Positions 34,023 through 38,799 of a DNA stretch of 64,000 nucleotides are shown here, piece by piece. Made by a program: the position numbers and the translations under genes. Origin of the DNA: Chlamydiales bacterium. GTDB lineage: Bacteria; Chlamydiota; Chlamydiia; Chlamydiales; JAAKFR01. Each line of letters begins with the position of its first letter. Within the stretch, counting starts at the first letter, position 1. The DNA lies in NCBI GenBank assembly GCA_022601445.1, contig JAJACP010000004.1:23300-87299 (forward strand). Reading direction: 5' to 3'. The notes under the pieces are model-generated. The model saw only the letters and a program-made list of their open reading frames with translations, did not search any database and was not told the DNA's origin.

Positions 34023-35132
34023 TTAACTCTTTACAAGCAAGTTTGCAAAGTGCTCTCCAATGGCGCTTTGAATCTGATCATCGAAAGAGATATATCCTGG
34101 TGTGTGCTCCTGTAGCATCCCTGCTTGCAGAATGCCCGACATCAGCAGGGCGCGAATCAGCTGAATCTTTTCGGGGTTGACTGAGTGCTTGTCACCAGTG
34201 AAATTGAGTGGAAATCCACTATTAATCAAATGCACCCTTCCCGTATCCAGATCGAAATGGCAATTCGAGTAAGAGGGAAAATTTTTGCGGAAGTGCACAC
34301 TGTCAAATTCCCGATCAGACGATGAGGCGCTCGCAAGAAGGCATCCCTTTTTGAGCAAGTCGTGGTAGATTTTTGGCAGACTTGTTACTCCCGTACACCC
34401 TATGATTAAATCCACCTCTGGAAGTAGCTGTGCTAAGTTAGGACGAAGGGGGTCCATTTTCTCATAGACTGTCACGTGGTATGCATCCTTCAAGAGGTGA
34501 TGAAACGCAGATCCCAGTGCTCCATTTCCCAAAATTAAAATGTGCTTCGAATCGAGTTGGTGGGTGGGATATCTTTTCACAATCTGCTCCAAAACGAGCT
34601 GTGCGATCCAACTGGGCTCACGCTTCTTCTTTAAAGAGAGATTGGCGATATTGAGCACAGGAAAGGGAAGGGTGCAGTGTTTTAACTTTTCATAACCCGA
34701 TGAGGTCTGCTCAATGCCGACGATTTTCGGCGATAGGTGATCGAAATAACGAATGATGCCCGAAAGGAGGTGCCCGCCATCGTCCAGTACAATATACCGG
34801 TCATAATCGCGTTTTCGTTTAAAGCAATCGACCAAAAATTGTAAAACAATTTTATCTAGCAGAAAATCATACGAGCAGTGCGAGTCAAAAAAACCACTCA
34901 GTGAACTGACATAAATTCCTTCTTGTTGCATGCGCTTTGCCACATGCTCATTGGTTGAGTAACACTTTCCTAAAATACAAACATTTTCAGGGTCAAGATC
35001 ATAGGCATACAAAGCTTGGAACATAGAGTGGGTTGTTTCCAGAATGTGTTGCAGCGAAAGAATGCATGTGCGTTTCAACGCATTCCCATTTGGAAAAAGA
35101 GATTTTGTAAATTCTATAAGTGGTAGTTTCAT
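34023..35132 (-). CDS. Divergent S-adenosylhomocysteine-hydrolase-fold (AdoHcyase-like) NAD-binding protein, paralogue P1
   Basis: By-eye collinear matches to SAHH blocks: IVLDDGGHL (DDGGD), GIEQTSSGYEKL (EETTTGV), FPVLNIANLSLKKK (PAINVNDSVTKSK), ILILGNGALGSAF (VAGYGDVGKG), DLIIGCTGV (IFVTTTG) and LASASSSDREF (NIGHFDxEI). Confidence 0.65.
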   Translation of the reverse strand: MKLPLIEFTKSLFPNGNALKRTCILSLQHILETTHSMFQALYAYDLDPENVCILGKCYSTNEHVAKRMQQEGIYVSSLSGFFDSHCSYDFLLDKIVLQFLVDCFKRKRDYDRYIVLDDGGHLLSGIIRYFDHLSPKIVGIEQTSSGYEKLKHCTLPFPVLNIANLSLKKKREPSWIAQLVLEQIVKRYPTHQLDSKHILILGNGALGSAFHHLLKDAYHVTVYEKMDPLRPNLAQLLPEVDLIIGCTGVTSLPKIYHDLLKKGCLLASASSSDREFDSVHFRKNFPSYSNCHFDLDTGRVHLINSGFPLNFTGDKHSVNPEKIQLIRALLMSGILQAGMLQEHTPGYISFDDQIQSAIGEHFANLLVKS

Positions 35133-35192
35133 TTTTTTCCGAAAAAATGTTTAATAAGAAGGAGTTTTTCGCAAAACGTGCATTTTGTGTTA

Positions 35193-35207
35193 CGGTAAAA
35201 ATTACCG
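35193..35207. promoter_or_regulatory. Palindrome in the divergent promoter between P1 and the LuxR gene (candidate operator)
   Basis: cggtaa-aaa-ttaccg, with perfect 6-bp arms, about 50 nt upstream of the LuxR ATG. Confidence 0.25.
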
Positions 35208-35256
35208 AATGCTGTTGTAAAGTTTTGATTTTAAATGGAGTTATATTGGTTTAGGG

Positions 35257-36015
35257 ATGAACAACTTAATAGAACTGATCCGACGGTACACGATTCAGCA
35301 TGACCAGAAAATTAAAAAAATCTGCGAACCGCTGCAACACATAGGAATCTCAACCTATGCCTACTATTCGATCAAGCATGATGGAAGCTTTGTGATTTTA
35401 TCTAACTATCCAAAGCAGCTTGAGTTTTTTTATGGCGAGAAACTGTATTTGACTTGCCCTTACTTAAAGCATCCGAGGCTTTATCGCTCAGGGTTGGATT
35501 TGATTCCATTGACTCCCCACGAGGAGCATCAGGAGACGTCAAGGCAGGTCTATCAGATCGACCACCTTCTTCTGATGATTCAACAGGTAGGGGGAGGTAT
35601 GGAGGGCTTTTTCTATACCAAAGAGAACTTGGGAGCTGAAGATGGGCGTATCTTTCTTCCTAAATTAGCGCTTCTCAGGCGTTTTAATAGCTACTTCAAA
35701 CGGGAAGCTAGAGGCCTGATTGAGGCGGCATTTGCGGATGGTTTTAACATTGGCAAAGTGCGAGGAAGAGGGTTTTTTGAACGGGAGTCTCATCTTCCTT
35801 TGTCGAGCGACCATGATGAGACAGAGCGGTTTTTAAAACAGGTTTGTGCTCTATCTCAACAGGAAGAGAGCTGTTTGAATTTGTTTCAGCAAGGACACTC
35901 GGCTCAGTCAACAGCAGCTTTGATGGGCATCTCACAACGTACTGTCGAGCACTACTTTGAGAATATCAAGAACAAGCTCGGGTGTTCAACGAAGGGAGAG
36001 CTTCTAAACTGGTGA
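35257..36015 (+). CDS. LuxR-family transcriptional regulator (C-terminal GerE-type HTH; N-terminal sensor-like domain of unknown type)
   Basis: The C-terminus LSQQEESCLNLFQQGHSAQSTAALMGISQRTVEHYFENIKNKLGCSTKGELL is a typical LuxR/GerE HTH. The roughly 180-aa N-terminal domain is unassigned. Confidence 0.8.
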   Translation: MNNLIELIRRYTIQHDQKIKKICEPLQHIGISTYAYYSIKHDGSFVILSNYPKQLEFFYGEKLYLTCPYLKHPRLYRSGLDLIPLTPHEEHQETSRQVYQIDHLLLMIQQVGGGMEGFFYTKENLGAEDGRIFLPKLALLRRFNSYFKREARGLIEAAFADGFNIGKVRGRGFFERESHLPLSSDHDETERFLKQVCALSQQEESCLNLFQQGHSAQSTAALMGISQRTVEHYFENIKNKLGCSTKGELLNW

Positions 36016-36045
36016 GAAAAATCGTCAGTATGTTATTCCTTTTGC

Positions 36046-37122
36046 ATGCTAACAAAGACCCATGAAGCGCTTCTAGACGCCTGGGGAGCTCTCGATCAAA
36101 CGGGAGCTCCTTTCCTTTGGCAGTGGCGTGAACATGTAGCCCAAGCACGTCCTTACGCTGGTATGAAGGTTTACCACAATATCCCGCTTTCCATAGAGGC
36201 TGTCTGTAAAATCGATGCTTTGTGTGAGGCAGGTGCAGAGGTGGTTGTCAGCTCCACAGATTTTCTGATCCCAGCGACCCTACCCCACGCACGTGAGTTA
36301 ATTGAGACTGCAGGAATCGAGTTTCGAGAGAGTAAATGGGCCAAGCCCGGGGAGTTTGATTTCTATCTCGATTGCTCGGCTGAACTCTCCGTTCTTCCCC
36401 CACCCAAAAGAAGTGTTGTGGAATTGACCCGCACAGGCGCACTTGTCTATGAGAAGAAGAGTTTTTCGGTGCCCATCCTTTCCGTTGATAACAGCTCTTT
36501 GAAAGTGCTGGAGACCTACTATGGGACAGGTGAAGCTTTTTTGCGCGCCTTTAAGGCTCTTTCGGGTAAGAATGTTAGGGACGAAACCTTTGTTTTATTT
36601 GGCTACGGGAAGGTAGGTCAAGGAGTGGCGCATGCGATCCAAAAGGCAGGAGGAGCGTGCCAGGTGGTCGAAATTGAGCCACGTGCGCGGGCATGTGCAC
36701 AAGAGCATGGGTGTGCTTCTTTTGGGAACGACATAGAGGGTCTACGTGCCGTGGAGAGCGCTTCAGTTGTGGTGACGGCCACGGGGTGCAAAGAAAGTCT
36801 GAGGAGTTCTTTTCCCACGATTCAAAACCATCTAGCGGGAAAAATACTCTGTAACATGGGAGCGGATGATGAAATTGGGAAAGGGTTTGCAGGAGCTCAC
36901 ATTTTAGCAGATGGACATCCGATTAACTTTACTCTTCAGCACCCCACTTTGATGAAGTACTTGGATCCTTCTCTGTATGCACATAACTTAGGGATTCAAG
37001 TTGTGCAAGAGAGGGAGTTTAAACCTGGATTTCATCCATTTCCGCAAGATTTAGATCTGGACATCGTCCAGAGGTGGGCAGAGATCCACGGAGAATCTGT
37101 AGATCCCATACTTGACTATTGA
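36046..37122 (+). CDS. Divergent SAHH-fold (AdoHcyase-like) NAD-binding protein, paralogue P2
   Basis: Collinear SAHH blocks: MKVYHNIPLSIEAVCKIDALCEAGAEVVVSS, VELTRTGA, PILSVDNSSLKVLETYYGTGEAF, FVLFGYGKVGQGVAHAIQKAGGACQVVEIEP (compare GYGDVGKG...TEIDP), VVVTATGCKE and ILCNMGADDEI. It begins 30 nt after the LuxR gene. Confidence 0.75.
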   Translation: MLTKTHEALLDAWGALDQTGAPFLWQWREHVAQARPYAGMKVYHNIPLSIEAVCKIDALCEAGAEVVVSSTDFLIPATLPHARELIETAGIEFRESKWAKPGEFDFYLDCSAELSVLPPPKRSVVELTRTGALVYEKKSFSVPILSVDNSSLKVLETYYGTGEAFLRAFKALSGKNVRDETFVLFGYGKVGQGVAHAIQKAGGACQVVEIEPRARACAQEHGCASFGNDIEGLRAVESASVVVTATGCKESLRSSFPTIQNHLAGKILCNMGADDEIGKGFAGAHILADGHPINFTLQHPTLMKYLDPSLYAHNLGIQVVQEREFKPGFHPFPQDLDLDIVQRWAEIHGESVDPILDY

Positions 37123-37124
37123 GC

Positions 37125-37155
37125 AAAAAAAAGAGGACACCTAAAAGGTGTCCTC
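37125..37155 (-). terminator. Rho-independent terminator of OMP paralogue 1
   Basis: On the minus strand: gaggacacc-tttta-ggtgtcctc followed by T8. The 33-bp block aaaaaaaagaggacacctaaaaggtgtcctcat is repeated identically at 38008-38040. Confidence 0.85.
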
Positions 37156-37178: not shown

Positions 37179-37922
37179 CTAGTAGCAGCAGAGGTCACCA
37201 AATCTATAGTTGACCATGATACGTCCGACCCAAGCTGCGTCGCTTAAGCTAAAGTGAAATCCGTTAAAGCTCTCACTGTTATGACAGAAATGTAGAGTCA
37301 GGAGTTCAACTCCAAAAGACCAGCTGCATCCGAGATCATATTCCATCCCAGCACCTCCGGCCCATCCCCACTTTGTATCGCAGCGGTTAAATCTGCGGTC
37401 ACTTGTGGTTCCGTTTAGATTACGCCATTCGTTGTCAAAGCTTGCCACAGCGGCCCCTGCAGTGACGTAGAGAAGGGCATCATTGCAAACCATCAGGCCT
37501 GCGCGTGCGCGAATTGTGGTGAACCAGTCGAAATCGTTTTTAATAAAACGATCGCTTGTGGCTGTTTGTGTGCCAAATAAACGCTCTTTGTGATCGACGT
37601 TGACCCAGTTCCAATCCACAACCAATCCAAGTACAGAGTTGCAGCACTGCCAGTCGTAGCCAAGTTGGATACCTAGTGTAATATCGGTGTTACATCGATC
37701 AAAACTGAGAACGTTATCATCAAAGAAACCATCTAGATCATTTCGGTACGCCATATGGCTAGCGACACCTATGTTTCCACCCAAGTAGAAACCCTCAAAT
37801 CCTGTTTCACAGCAGTACGGGTCGTACGACTGTGGTGGGCAGCTGTAGTAATCAGAAGCGATTGCCTGCCCCGCTGAGAGTACTCCAGCAAGGGCTAATG
37901 CACAAAAAAGAACCTTTTTCAT
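37179..37922 (-). CDS. Cysteine-rich outer-membrane beta-barrel protein, paralogue 1
   Basis: Signal peptide MKKVLFCALALAGVLSAGQAIA, alternating beta-strand pattern, a C-terminal aromatic residue (YRFGDLCCY), and CC pairs near both termini. Confidence 0.85.
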   Translation of the reverse strand: MKKVLFCALALAGVLSAGQAIASDYYSCPPQSYDPYCCETGFEGFYLGGNIGVASHMAYRNDLDGFFDDNVLSFDRCNTDITLGIQLGYDWQCCNSVLGLVVDWNWVNVDHKERLFGTQTATSDRFIKNDFDWFTTIRARAGLMVCNDALLYVTAGAAVASFDNEWRNLNGTTSDRRFNRCDTKWGWAGGAGMEYDLGCSWSFGVELLTLHFCHNSESFNGFHFSLSDAAWVGRIMVNYRFGDLCCY

Positions 37923-38073: not shown

Positions 38074-38799
38074 TTAGAAGCAGCAAAGATCACCAAATCT
38101 GTAGTTCAAGATCACACGACCGACCCAAGCCGTATCGCTTAGGCTGAAGTGGAAGTTGCTGTCAAATCTCTCGTTGTTGTGGCAGAAGTGTAGAGTTAAG
38201 ACCTCTACGCCCATGGTCCAGTTACATCCAAGACCAAATTCTGCTCCAACACCTCCGACCCAGCCCCACTTTGTGTCGCAGTGCTTGAAATTGCGATCGC
38301 TTGTAGTGCCGTTTAAGTTACGCCATTGGTTGTCAAAGCTAGCCACAGCAGCTCCAGCAGTGACGTAGAGTAGAGCATCACAAACTGTGAGGCCTGCTCG
38401 TGCACGAATGGTTGTGAACCAGTCGAAATCAGCTTTGATAAAACGGTCATTTGAGCCGAATAGACGCTCACGGTGATCCACGTTTACCCAGTTCCAGTCG
38501 ACAACGAGTCCGAAGACTGAACTAGCACACTGCCAGTCGTAGCCAAGTTGAAGACCAACCGTCACATCAGTCGTACATCTAGACAAACTGGTCACATTGT
38601 CATCAAAGAAACCATCTAGATCATTGCGGTGCGCCATGTGGCTGATAACACCTAGGTTACCACCGAAGTAGAAACCGTCGAACTCTGTTTCACAGCAATA
38701 CGGATCGTATTGCGGTGGGCAGCAGTAATCATTAGCAGCTGCCTGTTGTGCCGTTAGCATTCCTGCAACGGCTAATGCACAAAAAAGAACCTTTTTCAT
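38074..38799 (-). CDS. Cysteine-rich outer-membrane beta-barrel protein, paralogue 2
   Basis: 241 aa, collinear with paralogue 1 along its whole length (same signal peptide start MKKVLFCALA, ends YRFGDLCCF). The upstream leader attacctatctcctaggaattt is also shared. Confidence 0.85.
   Translation of the reverse strand: MKKVLFCALAVAGMLTAQQAAANDYCCPPQYDPYCCETEFDGFYFGGNLGVISHMAHRNDLDGFFDDNVTSLSRCTTDVTVGLQLGYDWQCASSVFGLVVDWNWVNVDHRERLFGSNDRFIKADFDWFTTIRARAGLTVCDALLYVTAGAAVASFDNQWRNLNGTTSDRNFKHCDTKWGWVGGVGAEFGLGCNWTMGVEVLTLHFCHNNERFDSNFHFSLSDTAWVGRVILNYRFGDLCCF

Follow-up and report, generated by a model that had tools for sequence, protein, structure and literature searches.

The window analysed here is a 64,000-nucleotide stretch of a Chlamydiales bacterium genome (contig JAJACP010000004.1, positions 23,300 to 87,299). 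In it we have studied three proteins related to S-adenosylhomocysteine hydrolase (SAHH), together with the two LuxR-type regulators encoded beside them. At locus A the gene for P1 diverges from that for the regulator LuxR1, which is followed by the gene for P2; at locus B the gene for a different regulator, LuxR2, precedes that for P3. All five open reading frames (ORFs) were found at the coordinates and on the strands given in a preliminary description of this DNA (Table 1). We observed that P1, P2 and P3 are not canonical SAHH enzymes, since the catalytic set, the C-terminal tail and the family score all fail, and the profile searches and predicted structures described below indicate that they have the two-domain SAHH fold, with a substrate-binding and a nicotinamide adenine dinucleotide (NAD) domain. 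Our interpretation, which we hold with middling confidence, is that the window has two small-molecule-responsive regulatory units built on SAHH-fold NAD-binding proteins, in which P2 and P3 would serve as signal-input modules. What is new is an SAHH-fold partner for regulation of the LuxR-solo and two-component types.

Relationship of P1, P2 and P3 to SAHH

In searches of NCBIfam and the Protein Data Bank (PDB), SAHH was the sole substantial match of all three proteins. Scores against the SAHH model TIGR00936 were 26.8 bits for P1, 66.2 for P2 and 57.3 for P3, vs a cut-off of 497.6. All three fell under the cut-off of PF05221, and the gathering score of 27 for AdoHcyase_NAD (PF00670) was passed by P2 (41.9 bits) and P3 (37.1 bits) only. 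As a single sequence P1 matched SAHH weakly (E value 2e-6 for TIGR00936 and 1.7e-11 for SAHH in the PDB). Family profiles compared with the PDB covered both domains of SAHH and of the related AHCYL proteins, including the N-terminal substrate-binding domain (E value 1e-32 with the P2-family profile, 4e-19 with that of the P1 family); the P1-family profile had its best sequence matches in the AHCYL structures 3mtg and 3gvp. AlphaFold models of P1 and P2, built from the family alignments, each had a predicted local distance difference test score (pLDDT) of 94.2, and in Foldseek comparisons with the PDB the top 50 matches of each model were SAHH or AHCYL throughout (best E value 2e-20 for P2 and 2e-18 for P1; template-modelling scores of 0.7–0.8).

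The SAHH fold suggested in the preliminary description is thus upheld over both domains by the profiles and by the P1 and P2 models, and so is its view that these are not housekeeping SAHH, given scores far under the family thresholds and the loss of several catalytic residues; its further reading, neofunctionalised enzymes acting on nucleosides or S-adenosylmethionine derivatives, is a conjecture from the fold and the residue conservation. That description had also named, as a result that would refute it, placement in an unrelated Rossmann family lacking homology in the substrate domain, and neither the profiles nor Foldseek pointed to one. Such families (2-hydroxyacid dehydrogenase, TrkA-N, PylD and DpaA) gave weak, partial matches in the NAD domain only, and they were rejected because SAHH alone matched over the full length, by profile and by fold.

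P1 and P2 belong to families that are homologous yet distinct, two families rather than one. As single sequences they matched each other with a BLAST E value of 8e-4, and the two family profiles aligned by hhalign at 97.8%, with an E value of 1e-12 over 296 columns. Profile E values were 2e-153 for P1 in the P1 family, and 9e-145 for P2 and 7e-127 for P3 in the P2 family. P2 and P3 are 38% identical, and P3 is as far from P2 as it is from P2-family members of the Legionellales, so that P3 did not arise from P2 by recent duplication. The earlier picture of one module recurring at two loci needs revision, P1 being of a separate family with methyltransferase neighbours and P3 no recent copy of P2.

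Catalytic and NAD-site residues

Residues were mapped onto the human SAHH sequence, all six catalytic positions of which agreed with the published numbering. By that numbering, Asp130, Glu155, Thr157 and Lys186 are kept in P1, P2 and P3. P1 also keeps His55 and Asp131, which in both P2 and P3 are Pro and Cys, respectively. Glu156 is Gln in P1 and Leu in P2 and P3, and Asn181 is Ala in P1, Asp in P2 and Asn in P3. The preliminary description reported that the histidine of the GHFD motif was absent and that the aspartate of KSKFDN was replaced. His301 is indeed gone from all three proteins (Ser in P1, Ala in P2, Gly in P3), and Asp190 is replaced in all three as well, with the qualification that the replacement, Glu, is conservative. 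The strings GYGKVGQG, GYGNVGSG, GADDE, GGNDE and SSSDRE, quoted there, were all found.

The NAD motif GxGxxG and the acidic residue at the end of strand beta-2 are present in P2 (GYGKVGQG and E209), in P3 (GYGNVGSG and an Asp) and in P1 (GNGALG and the E of VYEK), and these positions are invariant or nearly so across both families. In canonical SAHH a C-terminal tail (Lys426/Tyr430) completes the NAD site of the neighbouring subunit. This tail is absent here: position ~343 of the P2-family profile corresponds to human position ~398, and only ~15 residues follow it. With lengths of 358–390 amino acids (aa), vs 432 in human SAHH, P1–P3 are 40–75 aa shorter.

Each family has its own conserved pattern. 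The motifs of P1 are QHILETTH, GKCYS, DDGG, IEQTSSG, K168/E172, GNGALG and SASSSDREFD, and in the P1-family alignment H29, D117/D118, E141-Q142-T143, K168, E172, GxGxxG and S270-F276 are invariant. The invariant columns of the family motifs QH..ET, GKCYS, DDGG, EQT(S/A)(S/A)G, K168/E172, SSSDREF, GFP.NF and IQL all occur in P1. Likewise, the invariant residues of the P2 family (D109, C110, E126, T128, K153, E156, R167, GYGxVGxG, N270, G272, D275 and E276, and further N294, F295, P300 and T301) are all found in P2 and in P3.

SAHH itself (AhcY; EC 3.13.2.1; PF05221 plus PF00670) shares with P1–P3 the two-domain fold, the Rossmann NAD site and the pair formed by Lys186 and an acidic residue at position 190, and its blocks DDGGD, EETTTG, NVNDSVTKSKFDN and NIGHFD have equivalents in the same order in P1–P3. 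It differs in its genomic setting, as the partners observed here are regulators, kinases or methyltransferases and not methionine-cycle genes.

Genomic partners of the P2 family

The P2 family comprised 314 representatives at an E value of 1e-30 or less, among 1.84 billion cluster representatives (clusters at 50% identity). Its distribution is patchy, taking in several Legionella species, Legionellales metagenome-assembled genomes (MAGs), Kangiella, Aquimarina and other Flavobacteriia, Ruegeria, Hoeflea, Actinophytocola, Elusimicrobia, Bdellovibrio and Chlamydiae, and the usual annotation is 'NAD-binding protein'. We examined the family's genomic contexts in 80 genome loci (loci retrieved for comparison carry the letter L and a number below).

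In 10 representatives a P2-like domain (residues ~1–350) stands N-terminal to a PAS_4 domain and a histidine kinase core. Seven of these fusions have PAS_4, HisKA and HATPase_c, with or without REC and Hpt; the other 3 have HATPase_c with a weak HisKA match or none. Two more proteins consist of a P2-like domain and PAS_4 only, and all 12 fusion proteins (10 kinase, 2 PAS-only) retain every P2-family invariant residue. At 9 loci, of which 6 are Legionellales or gammaproteobacterial and 3 are from Elusimicrobia, a stand-alone P2-like gene is followed directly by a kinase gene, and the kinase parts of the fusions show 25–43% identity to the products of these genes. The fused and the split arrangements represent fusion and fission of one system. 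At the Elusimicrobia loci (L073, L077 and L082) the operon consists of a PNP_UDP_1 nucleoside phosphorylase gene (identified in L073 and L077 only), the P2-like gene, a gene for an ATP-binding cassette (ABC)-type substrate-binding protein and one for a hybrid histidine kinase. This phosphorylase gives another indication that the ligand may be a nucleoside.

No kinase gene adjoins P2 or P3 in the window, where a GerE regulator occupies that place. The window has 2 GerE ORFs, each immediately 5' of one of its only two P2-family genes, and the chance that both would precede both P2-family genes among ~60 genes is, by a rough estimate, <1e-3. A LuxR1-like regulator also lies 5' of a P2-like gene in two alphaproteobacterial MAGs, directly in L086 (75-nt gap) and at ~570–620 nt in L008. 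The kinase fusions and adjacencies, and the LuxR adjacency in these two MAGs, thus tie the P2 family to signal transduction in several phyla. The preliminary description would have been refuted if LuxR adjacency were conserved in no related genome; the P1–LuxR1 arrangement is kept in relatives, as described below, and the LuxR–P2 arrangement is absent from chlamydial-type P2 orthologues at 50–60% identity.

The P1–LuxR1 pair and its 17-nt box

P1 is 100% identical to hypothetical protein S4CHLAM2_07290 of a Chlamydiales MAG. Locus A is syntenic in a sister genome, MAG ERP117304_co1_155, with DNA identity of ~78%. The ratio of nonsynonymous to synonymous substitution rates (dN/dS) in this comparison was 0.067 for P1, 0.021 for LuxR1 (96% identical) and 0.085 for P2, and the genes of locus A are under strong purifying selection (dN/dS 0.02–0.09).

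The P1 family gave 923 database matches, with a mean column identity of 46%. Those of its members that carry names come from Chlamydiales, Simkania and Rhabdochlamydia, together with MAGs labelled Verrucomicrobia and archaeon. In 77 metagenome loci carrying a family member, an FkbM or MTS methyltransferase dependent on S-adenosylmethionine (SAM) was encoded in 17, directly adjacent in 13; a short-chain dehydrogenase/reductase (SDR) was encoded in 8 and a Cupin_5 protein in 7, and none of the 77 loci had a LuxR gene.

LuxR1 matched GerE (E value 1.6e-9) at residues 199–249, and a Pfam search with its first ~190 residues gave no match. Its family (93 database matches) is mostly of ~250 aa and conserved over its full length, and the few named members are chlamydial. 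Quorum-sensing (QS)-type LuxR proteins conserve Glu178, Leu182 and Gly188 in TraR numbering (PMC4338825). The LuxR1 family has at these positions E203 and G213, both invariant, and L207, nearly so, with the 4+6 spacing of the QS type. The autoinducer-binding model Autoind_bind (PF03472) was matched weakly by 4 of 28 family members (best E value 3e-4) and not by LuxR1 itself, and the N-terminal part of TraR gave a weak match to LuxR1 at residues 13–65 (E value 0.0025). General inspection of the window, which is 64 kb of the genome only, disclosed no LuxI-like gene beside LuxR1 or LuxR2. On a chlamydial-type contig (L175, 6001–7544) we noted tandem LuxR1-family paralogues of 253 aa each, so that the family is multi-copy in some genomes.

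The closest LuxR1 orthologues (51–62% identity) are encoded beside, and divergently from, the closest P1 orthologues (47–55%). The divergent pair is kept in L007, L171 and L172, with P1 identities of 47–83% across relatives. In L177 the LuxR1 and P1 orthologues are separated by a methyltransferase gene, and the divergent operon consists of genes for that methyltransferase, the P1 orthologue, a flavin mononucleotide (FMN)-dependent dehydrogenase and a further methyltransferase. Three further P1 and LuxR1 matches lie on short contigs of matching lengths (2.3–3.9 kb), from which we infer that these also are adjacent pairs.

A 15-bp palindrome, CGGTAA-AAA-TTACCG, had been described at 35193–35207, and it is exact. 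Taken alone it is not statistically significant. It is contained in a 17-nt box, TTACSGTAAAAATTACC, that occurs only in P1–LuxR1 intergenic regions: once in the window, and among 177 fetched loci nowhere outside such regions. The box of L007 is TTACGGTAAAAATTACC, the same as in the window; L171 and L172 have TTACCGTAAAAATTACCCTAT, and L177 has the variant CTACCGTAAAAAAACACCCTAG. Apart from the box, the orthologous intergenic regions cannot be aligned. An intergenic alignment of 3 sequences had a mean column identity of 95%, but 2 of the 3 are copies of the sister genome. The box is a candidate LuxR1 operator in the divergent promoter, and its persistence with the divergent pair in chlamydial relatives, over P1 identities of 47–83%, shows that the link between regulator and SAHH-like protein is not due to chance. 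Treatment of the palindrome as a repeated operator was rejected: the window has it once only, and it is absent from locus B and from the region 5' of P2. Elsewhere (L173, 4938–4954) a related palindrome, GGTACAAAGTACCCTAT, lies 5' of a LuxR1 paralogue with no P1 gene, which suggests a family-wide operator type, GTAnAAAnTACCCTAT.

Between LuxR1 and P2 there is a weak hairpin only, without a T-run, and the two genes are probably co-transcribed.

The LuxR2–P3 cassette

LuxR2 has the helix-turn-helix alone in common with LuxR1. The cassette that encodes LuxR2 and P3 is 96.6% identical in DNA sequence to nucleotides 56–2137 of the sister locus L022, vs 76–84% for locus A and the contig flanks, and synonymous divergence (dS) is 0.08–0.09 at locus B vs 1.2–1.7 at locus A. 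These values indicate that LuxR2 and P3 were recently transferred or gene-converted as a two-gene unit, and because they moved as one unit we argue that they work together. Plasmid origin was considered for the cassette and rejected, as PLSDB has canonical ahcY only, at 22–31% identity.

P3 has a hydrophobic N-terminal extension of ~28 aa (MNVSAKYFLVLFAYLIFLVSKDC..., encoded at 52994–53080) that other members of the P2 family do not share and that could be a signal or anchor sequence. An AGGAG ribosome-binding site abuts the ATG, so that translation of P3 may in fact begin at the GTG at 53000.

Beside the cassette we made two further observations. A stretch of 5.4 kb (54256–59684), between the cassette and the next shared gene, is missing in the sister genome, which retains ~86 nt at the start of ORF402 before the sequences diverge; in the window this stretch contains ORF402, a C-N hydrolase-like gene, an RlmK-like SAM methyltransferase gene and a 126-aa SnoaL-like ORF. 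Upstream of LuxR2, and divergent from it, is a gene for an AAA ATPase (50785–51966, minus strand). In L013, L070, L055 and L008 a homologue of this ATPase (27–36% identity) is encoded a few kb or less from the P2-family gene, as against only 1 of 80 P1-family loci. The ATPase gene could be a mobile-island marker or a coincidence.

Proposed mechanism

In the scheme that we propose, LuxR1, as a LuxR-solo-like regulator, would bind the 17-nt box and from there control P1 in one direction and its own operon, luxR1-P2, in the other. P1 would oxidise the 3'-OH of S-adenosylhomocysteine (SAH), or of a similar 5'-substituted nucleoside, and then cleave it, and this activity would relieve product inhibition of neighbouring methyltransferases. 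P2 and P3, in which the NAD site and the Lys186/Glu190 pair are retained and the hydrolytic residues replaced, would bind NAD and a nucleoside-like metabolite as a signal-input module. SAHH closes its two domains upon substrate binding, a property that would suit a sensor. A neighbouring sensor domain would then respond either to a closure of this kind, induced by ligand, or to a product of the reaction; this sensor would be PAS (PAS_4) in the kinases and, in the window, the N-terminal domain of LuxR1 or LuxR2.

More generally, and only tentatively, we suggest that the P2-type SAHH-fold domain is a new signalling module, either a cytoplasmic sensor of a metabolite linked to nucleosides, SAH or NAD, or a synthase of a nucleoside- or homocysteine-derived signal. 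Its output would go to PAS-histidine kinases in Legionellales-like bacteria and Elusimicrobia, and in Chlamydiae and alphaproteobacterial MAGs to regulators of the LuxR type; this wider proposal seems to us possible rather than probable.

A number of observations weigh against assigning P2 and P3 to signal input and LuxR1 to ligand-dependent control. Several SAHH catalytic residues are absent from P1–P3, so that turnover may not occur. About 65 of the 80 P2-family loci have no signalling neighbour, and 3 P2 orthologues (50–60% identity, in genomes of the Planctomycetes-Verrucomicrobia-Chlamydiae (PVC) type) stand alone among housekeeping genes, with neither a regulator nor a nearby P1. Some recurrent partners of the family suggest plain metabolism, namely a 285-aa domain with DUF3293, GDP-sugar genes and nucleoside phosphorylase. 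No PDB entry was matched by the profile of the N-terminal domain of LuxR1, and this domain has no secure homology to ligand-binding domains; LuxR1 paralogues at greater distance (at most 49% identity) have neighbours other than P1. No sigma-70 promoter consensus was found in the divergent region 35133–35256, and a hairpin (52921–52947) intervenes between LuxR2 and P3.

The association with the 285-aa domain and DUF3293 takes two forms. In Flavobacteriia and Ruegeria these two and the P2-like protein are encoded in a three-gene operon, and in Actinophytocola (812 aa) and a Myxococcota MAG (831 aa) all three are fused into single proteins with two different domain orders. Coordinates for this association are 5866–8304 in L056, 4540–7035 in L025 and 5941–8275 in L041, and the 285-aa domain is unannotated. 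No homologue of that domain or of DUF3293 was found in the window. A PADLOC search for anti-phage systems gave no meaningful match for P1–P3, LuxR1, the 285-aa partner, DUF3293 or the GNAT-like (Gcn5-related N-acetyltransferase-like) partner described below.

Metabolic enzymes, signal synthases or chance neighbours

The alternative that survives best is that P1–P3 are NAD-dependent enzymes for salvage or detoxification of nucleosides or SAH, and that the two LuxR proteins are plain, substrate-inducible local regulators with no wider signalling. We give this a modest chance of being right. It agrees with the P2 orthologues that stand alone among housekeeping genes (one has a uridine-kinase-like PRK gene as its neighbour), with the methyltransferases, SDRs and cupins near P1-family genes, and with the nucleoside phosphorylase, methyltransferase and GDP-sugar genes near P2-family genes. 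Getting rid of SAH in the absence of a canonical SahH is also a known pressure on chlamydiae (PMC3104491). Yet repeated in-frame fusion of P2-like domains to PAS-histidine kinases, and operons of kinases and response regulators, would be unexpected for a housekeeping enzyme, and P2 and P3 are without the residues that serve hydrolysis in SAHH. On present comparative data, signal input by P2 and P3 is favoured at least as much as a purely metabolic role.

Less likely is that these are synthase-receptor pairs, in which a P2-family protein makes or finishes a nucleoside- or homocysteine-derived signal that is detected by the adjacent PAS-histidine kinase or LuxR protein, after the manner of LuxI/LuxR, LuxM/LuxN and PhcB/PhcS. 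One enzyme family accompanied by a kinase in some lineages and by a LuxR-type regulator in others is the pattern of an autoinducer synthase, and the invariant, active-site-like residues suggest chemistry and not binding alone. Moreover, a GNAT-like acyltransferase of ~215–265 aa is encoded directly 5' of the P2-like gene, ~700 nt upstream, in six Legionellales or gammaproteobacterial loci (L010, L011, L013, L016, L017 and L018); its matches to Acetyltransf_5 and OlsB-type N-acyltransferase models were weak. Five of the 6 loci also encode the PAS-kinase, and two (L010 and L013) add a receiver-domain protein of ~330–340 aa after the kinase. Against such pairs, the loci in the window have no acyltransferase, it would be unusual for a synthase to be joined covalently to the receptor that it serves, and the examined parts of the partner kinases and fusions have no membrane-spanning sensor region, their domain maps pointing to an intracellular location.

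That there is no functional link at all, gene order in a small lineage having brought decaying SAHH paralogues next to regulators, is strongly disfavoured: the confinement of LuxR–P2 adjacency, among chlamydial-type genomes, to the lineage of the window and the non-significance of the palindrome by itself would fit it, but the purifying selection (dN/dS 0.02–0.09) and many invariant residues in both families, the persistence of the P1–LuxR1 pair and its box across relatives with saturated synonymous divergence, the movement of LuxR2 and P3 as a unit, and the independent origin of LuxR and kinase links in other phyla all speak against it.

Comparison with known systems

Returning to signal input by P2 and P3, we compared the proposed units with systems of known function. 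The eukaryotic proteins AHCYL1 and AHCYL2 (IRBIT) resemble them in that an SAHH fold serves regulation and not bulk SAH hydrolysis, a likeness of logic rather than of membership. In IRBIT the regulatory interactions are carried by a phosphorylated N-terminal extension, and nearly all SAHH residues are kept. That extension is absent in P1–P3, as the modelled folds of P1 and P2 start within the first 5–20 residues and P3 has only its hydrophobic extension of ~28 aa. The partners differ also, being bacterial transcription and two-component proteins in the case of P1–P3.

LuxR1 shares with the LuxR solos that do not respond to acyl-homoserine lactones (AHL) a size of ~250 aa, an N-terminal domain of ~190 aa, the C-terminal GerE signature residues and a palindromic box 5' of its own gene, and no synthase gene was noticed beside it. 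Unlike theirs, its N-terminal domain has no significant match to Autoind_bind or to any solved structure, and LuxR2 has a SnoaL/NTF2 domain instead. A survey published in 2015 found LuxR proteins with QS domains, among Chlamydiae and Verrucomicrobia, only in Methylacidiphilum (PMC4338825).

The P2 family further resembles LuxI/LuxR, LuxM/LuxN, CqsA/CqsS and PhcB/PhcS/PhcR in that a gene for a small-molecule enzyme lies beside one for a histidine kinase or a LuxR-type regulator. It is unlike these enzyme-receptor operons in that its kinases appear to be cytoplasmic and that enzyme and kinase are often one polypeptide. To our knowledge, no known autoinducer synthase has an SAHH-like NAD-binding fold. 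Rex and the TrkA-N/RCK proteins provide a precedent for a Rossmann NAD-binding domain as a regulatory input, and P2-family members match TrkA_N weakly. In contrast to those proteins, P2 and P3 keep a complete second SAHH domain and a conserved Lys/Glu/Cys pocket, from which we infer a second ligand besides NAD.

No paper on bacterial SAHH-like paralogues of the P1 and P2 types was found, and nothing relevant on DUF3293, chlamydial LuxR proteins or an SAHH-like domain in histidine kinases; the literature searched was incomplete, and the negative is no evidence that such work does not exist. According to Binet et al., Parachlamydia and Waddlia alone, of the 26 chlamydial genomes considered, have sahH, and the others export SAH through a SAM/SAH transporter (PMC3104491). 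The P1 family would have been missed in that analysis, as no Pfam model matches it, and the occurrence of an SAHH-fold family beside methyltransferases reopens the question of how chlamydiae dispose of SAH.

If the wider proposal is true, it would, with P1–LuxR1 and its box, provide environmental chlamydiae with a ligand-responsive regulon tied to the methyl cycle, most of which they were believed to have lost. Chlamydiae have few transcription factors, very few of them with a known signal, and LuxR1, with its conserved target and box, offers a testable regulon. An SAHH-like N-terminal domain on histidine kinases would be a new input domain, possibly one that senses methylation or nucleoside status.

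Other features of the window

Coordinates of the features discussed are collected in Table 1. A scan of the whole window (1–64000) against Rfam gave zero families at the gathering score, with no recognisable tRNA, riboswitch or small RNA, and control by a riboswitch was rejected on this ground.

Table 1. Features of loci A and B, in positions of the 64,000-nt window
Feature	Position	Strand	Description
P1	34023-35132	-	369 aa; SAHH-fold protein (predicted), P1 family
P1-LuxR1 divergent intergenic region	35133-35256	.	124 nt
Conserved 17-nt box TTACGGTAAAAATTACC	35190-35206	.	candidate LuxR1 operator
LuxR1	35257-36015	+	252 aa; N-terminal domain of ~190 aa and GerE helix-turn-helix
P2	36046-37122	+	358 aa; SAHH-fold (predicted), P2 family; begins 30 nt after LuxR1
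GC-rich hairpin (10 bp)	37133-37155	.	between P2 and convergent outer-membrane-protein gene; terminator-like on minus strand
LuxR2-P3 cassette	52175-54256	+	2,082 bp
LuxR2	52210-52932	+	240 aa; SnoaL-like (NTF2-fold) N-terminal domain, then GerE helix-turn-helix
Hairpin (12 bp)	52921-52947	+	spans LuxR2 stop codon, T-rich stretch after; possible terminator or attenuator before P3
P3	52994-54166	+	390 aa; P2 family

Directly downstream of P2, and convergent with it, are tandem paralogous genes for cysteine-rich beta-barrel outer-membrane proteins (37179–37922 and 38074–38799, minus strand), which in the sister genome are annotated OMP_b-brl.

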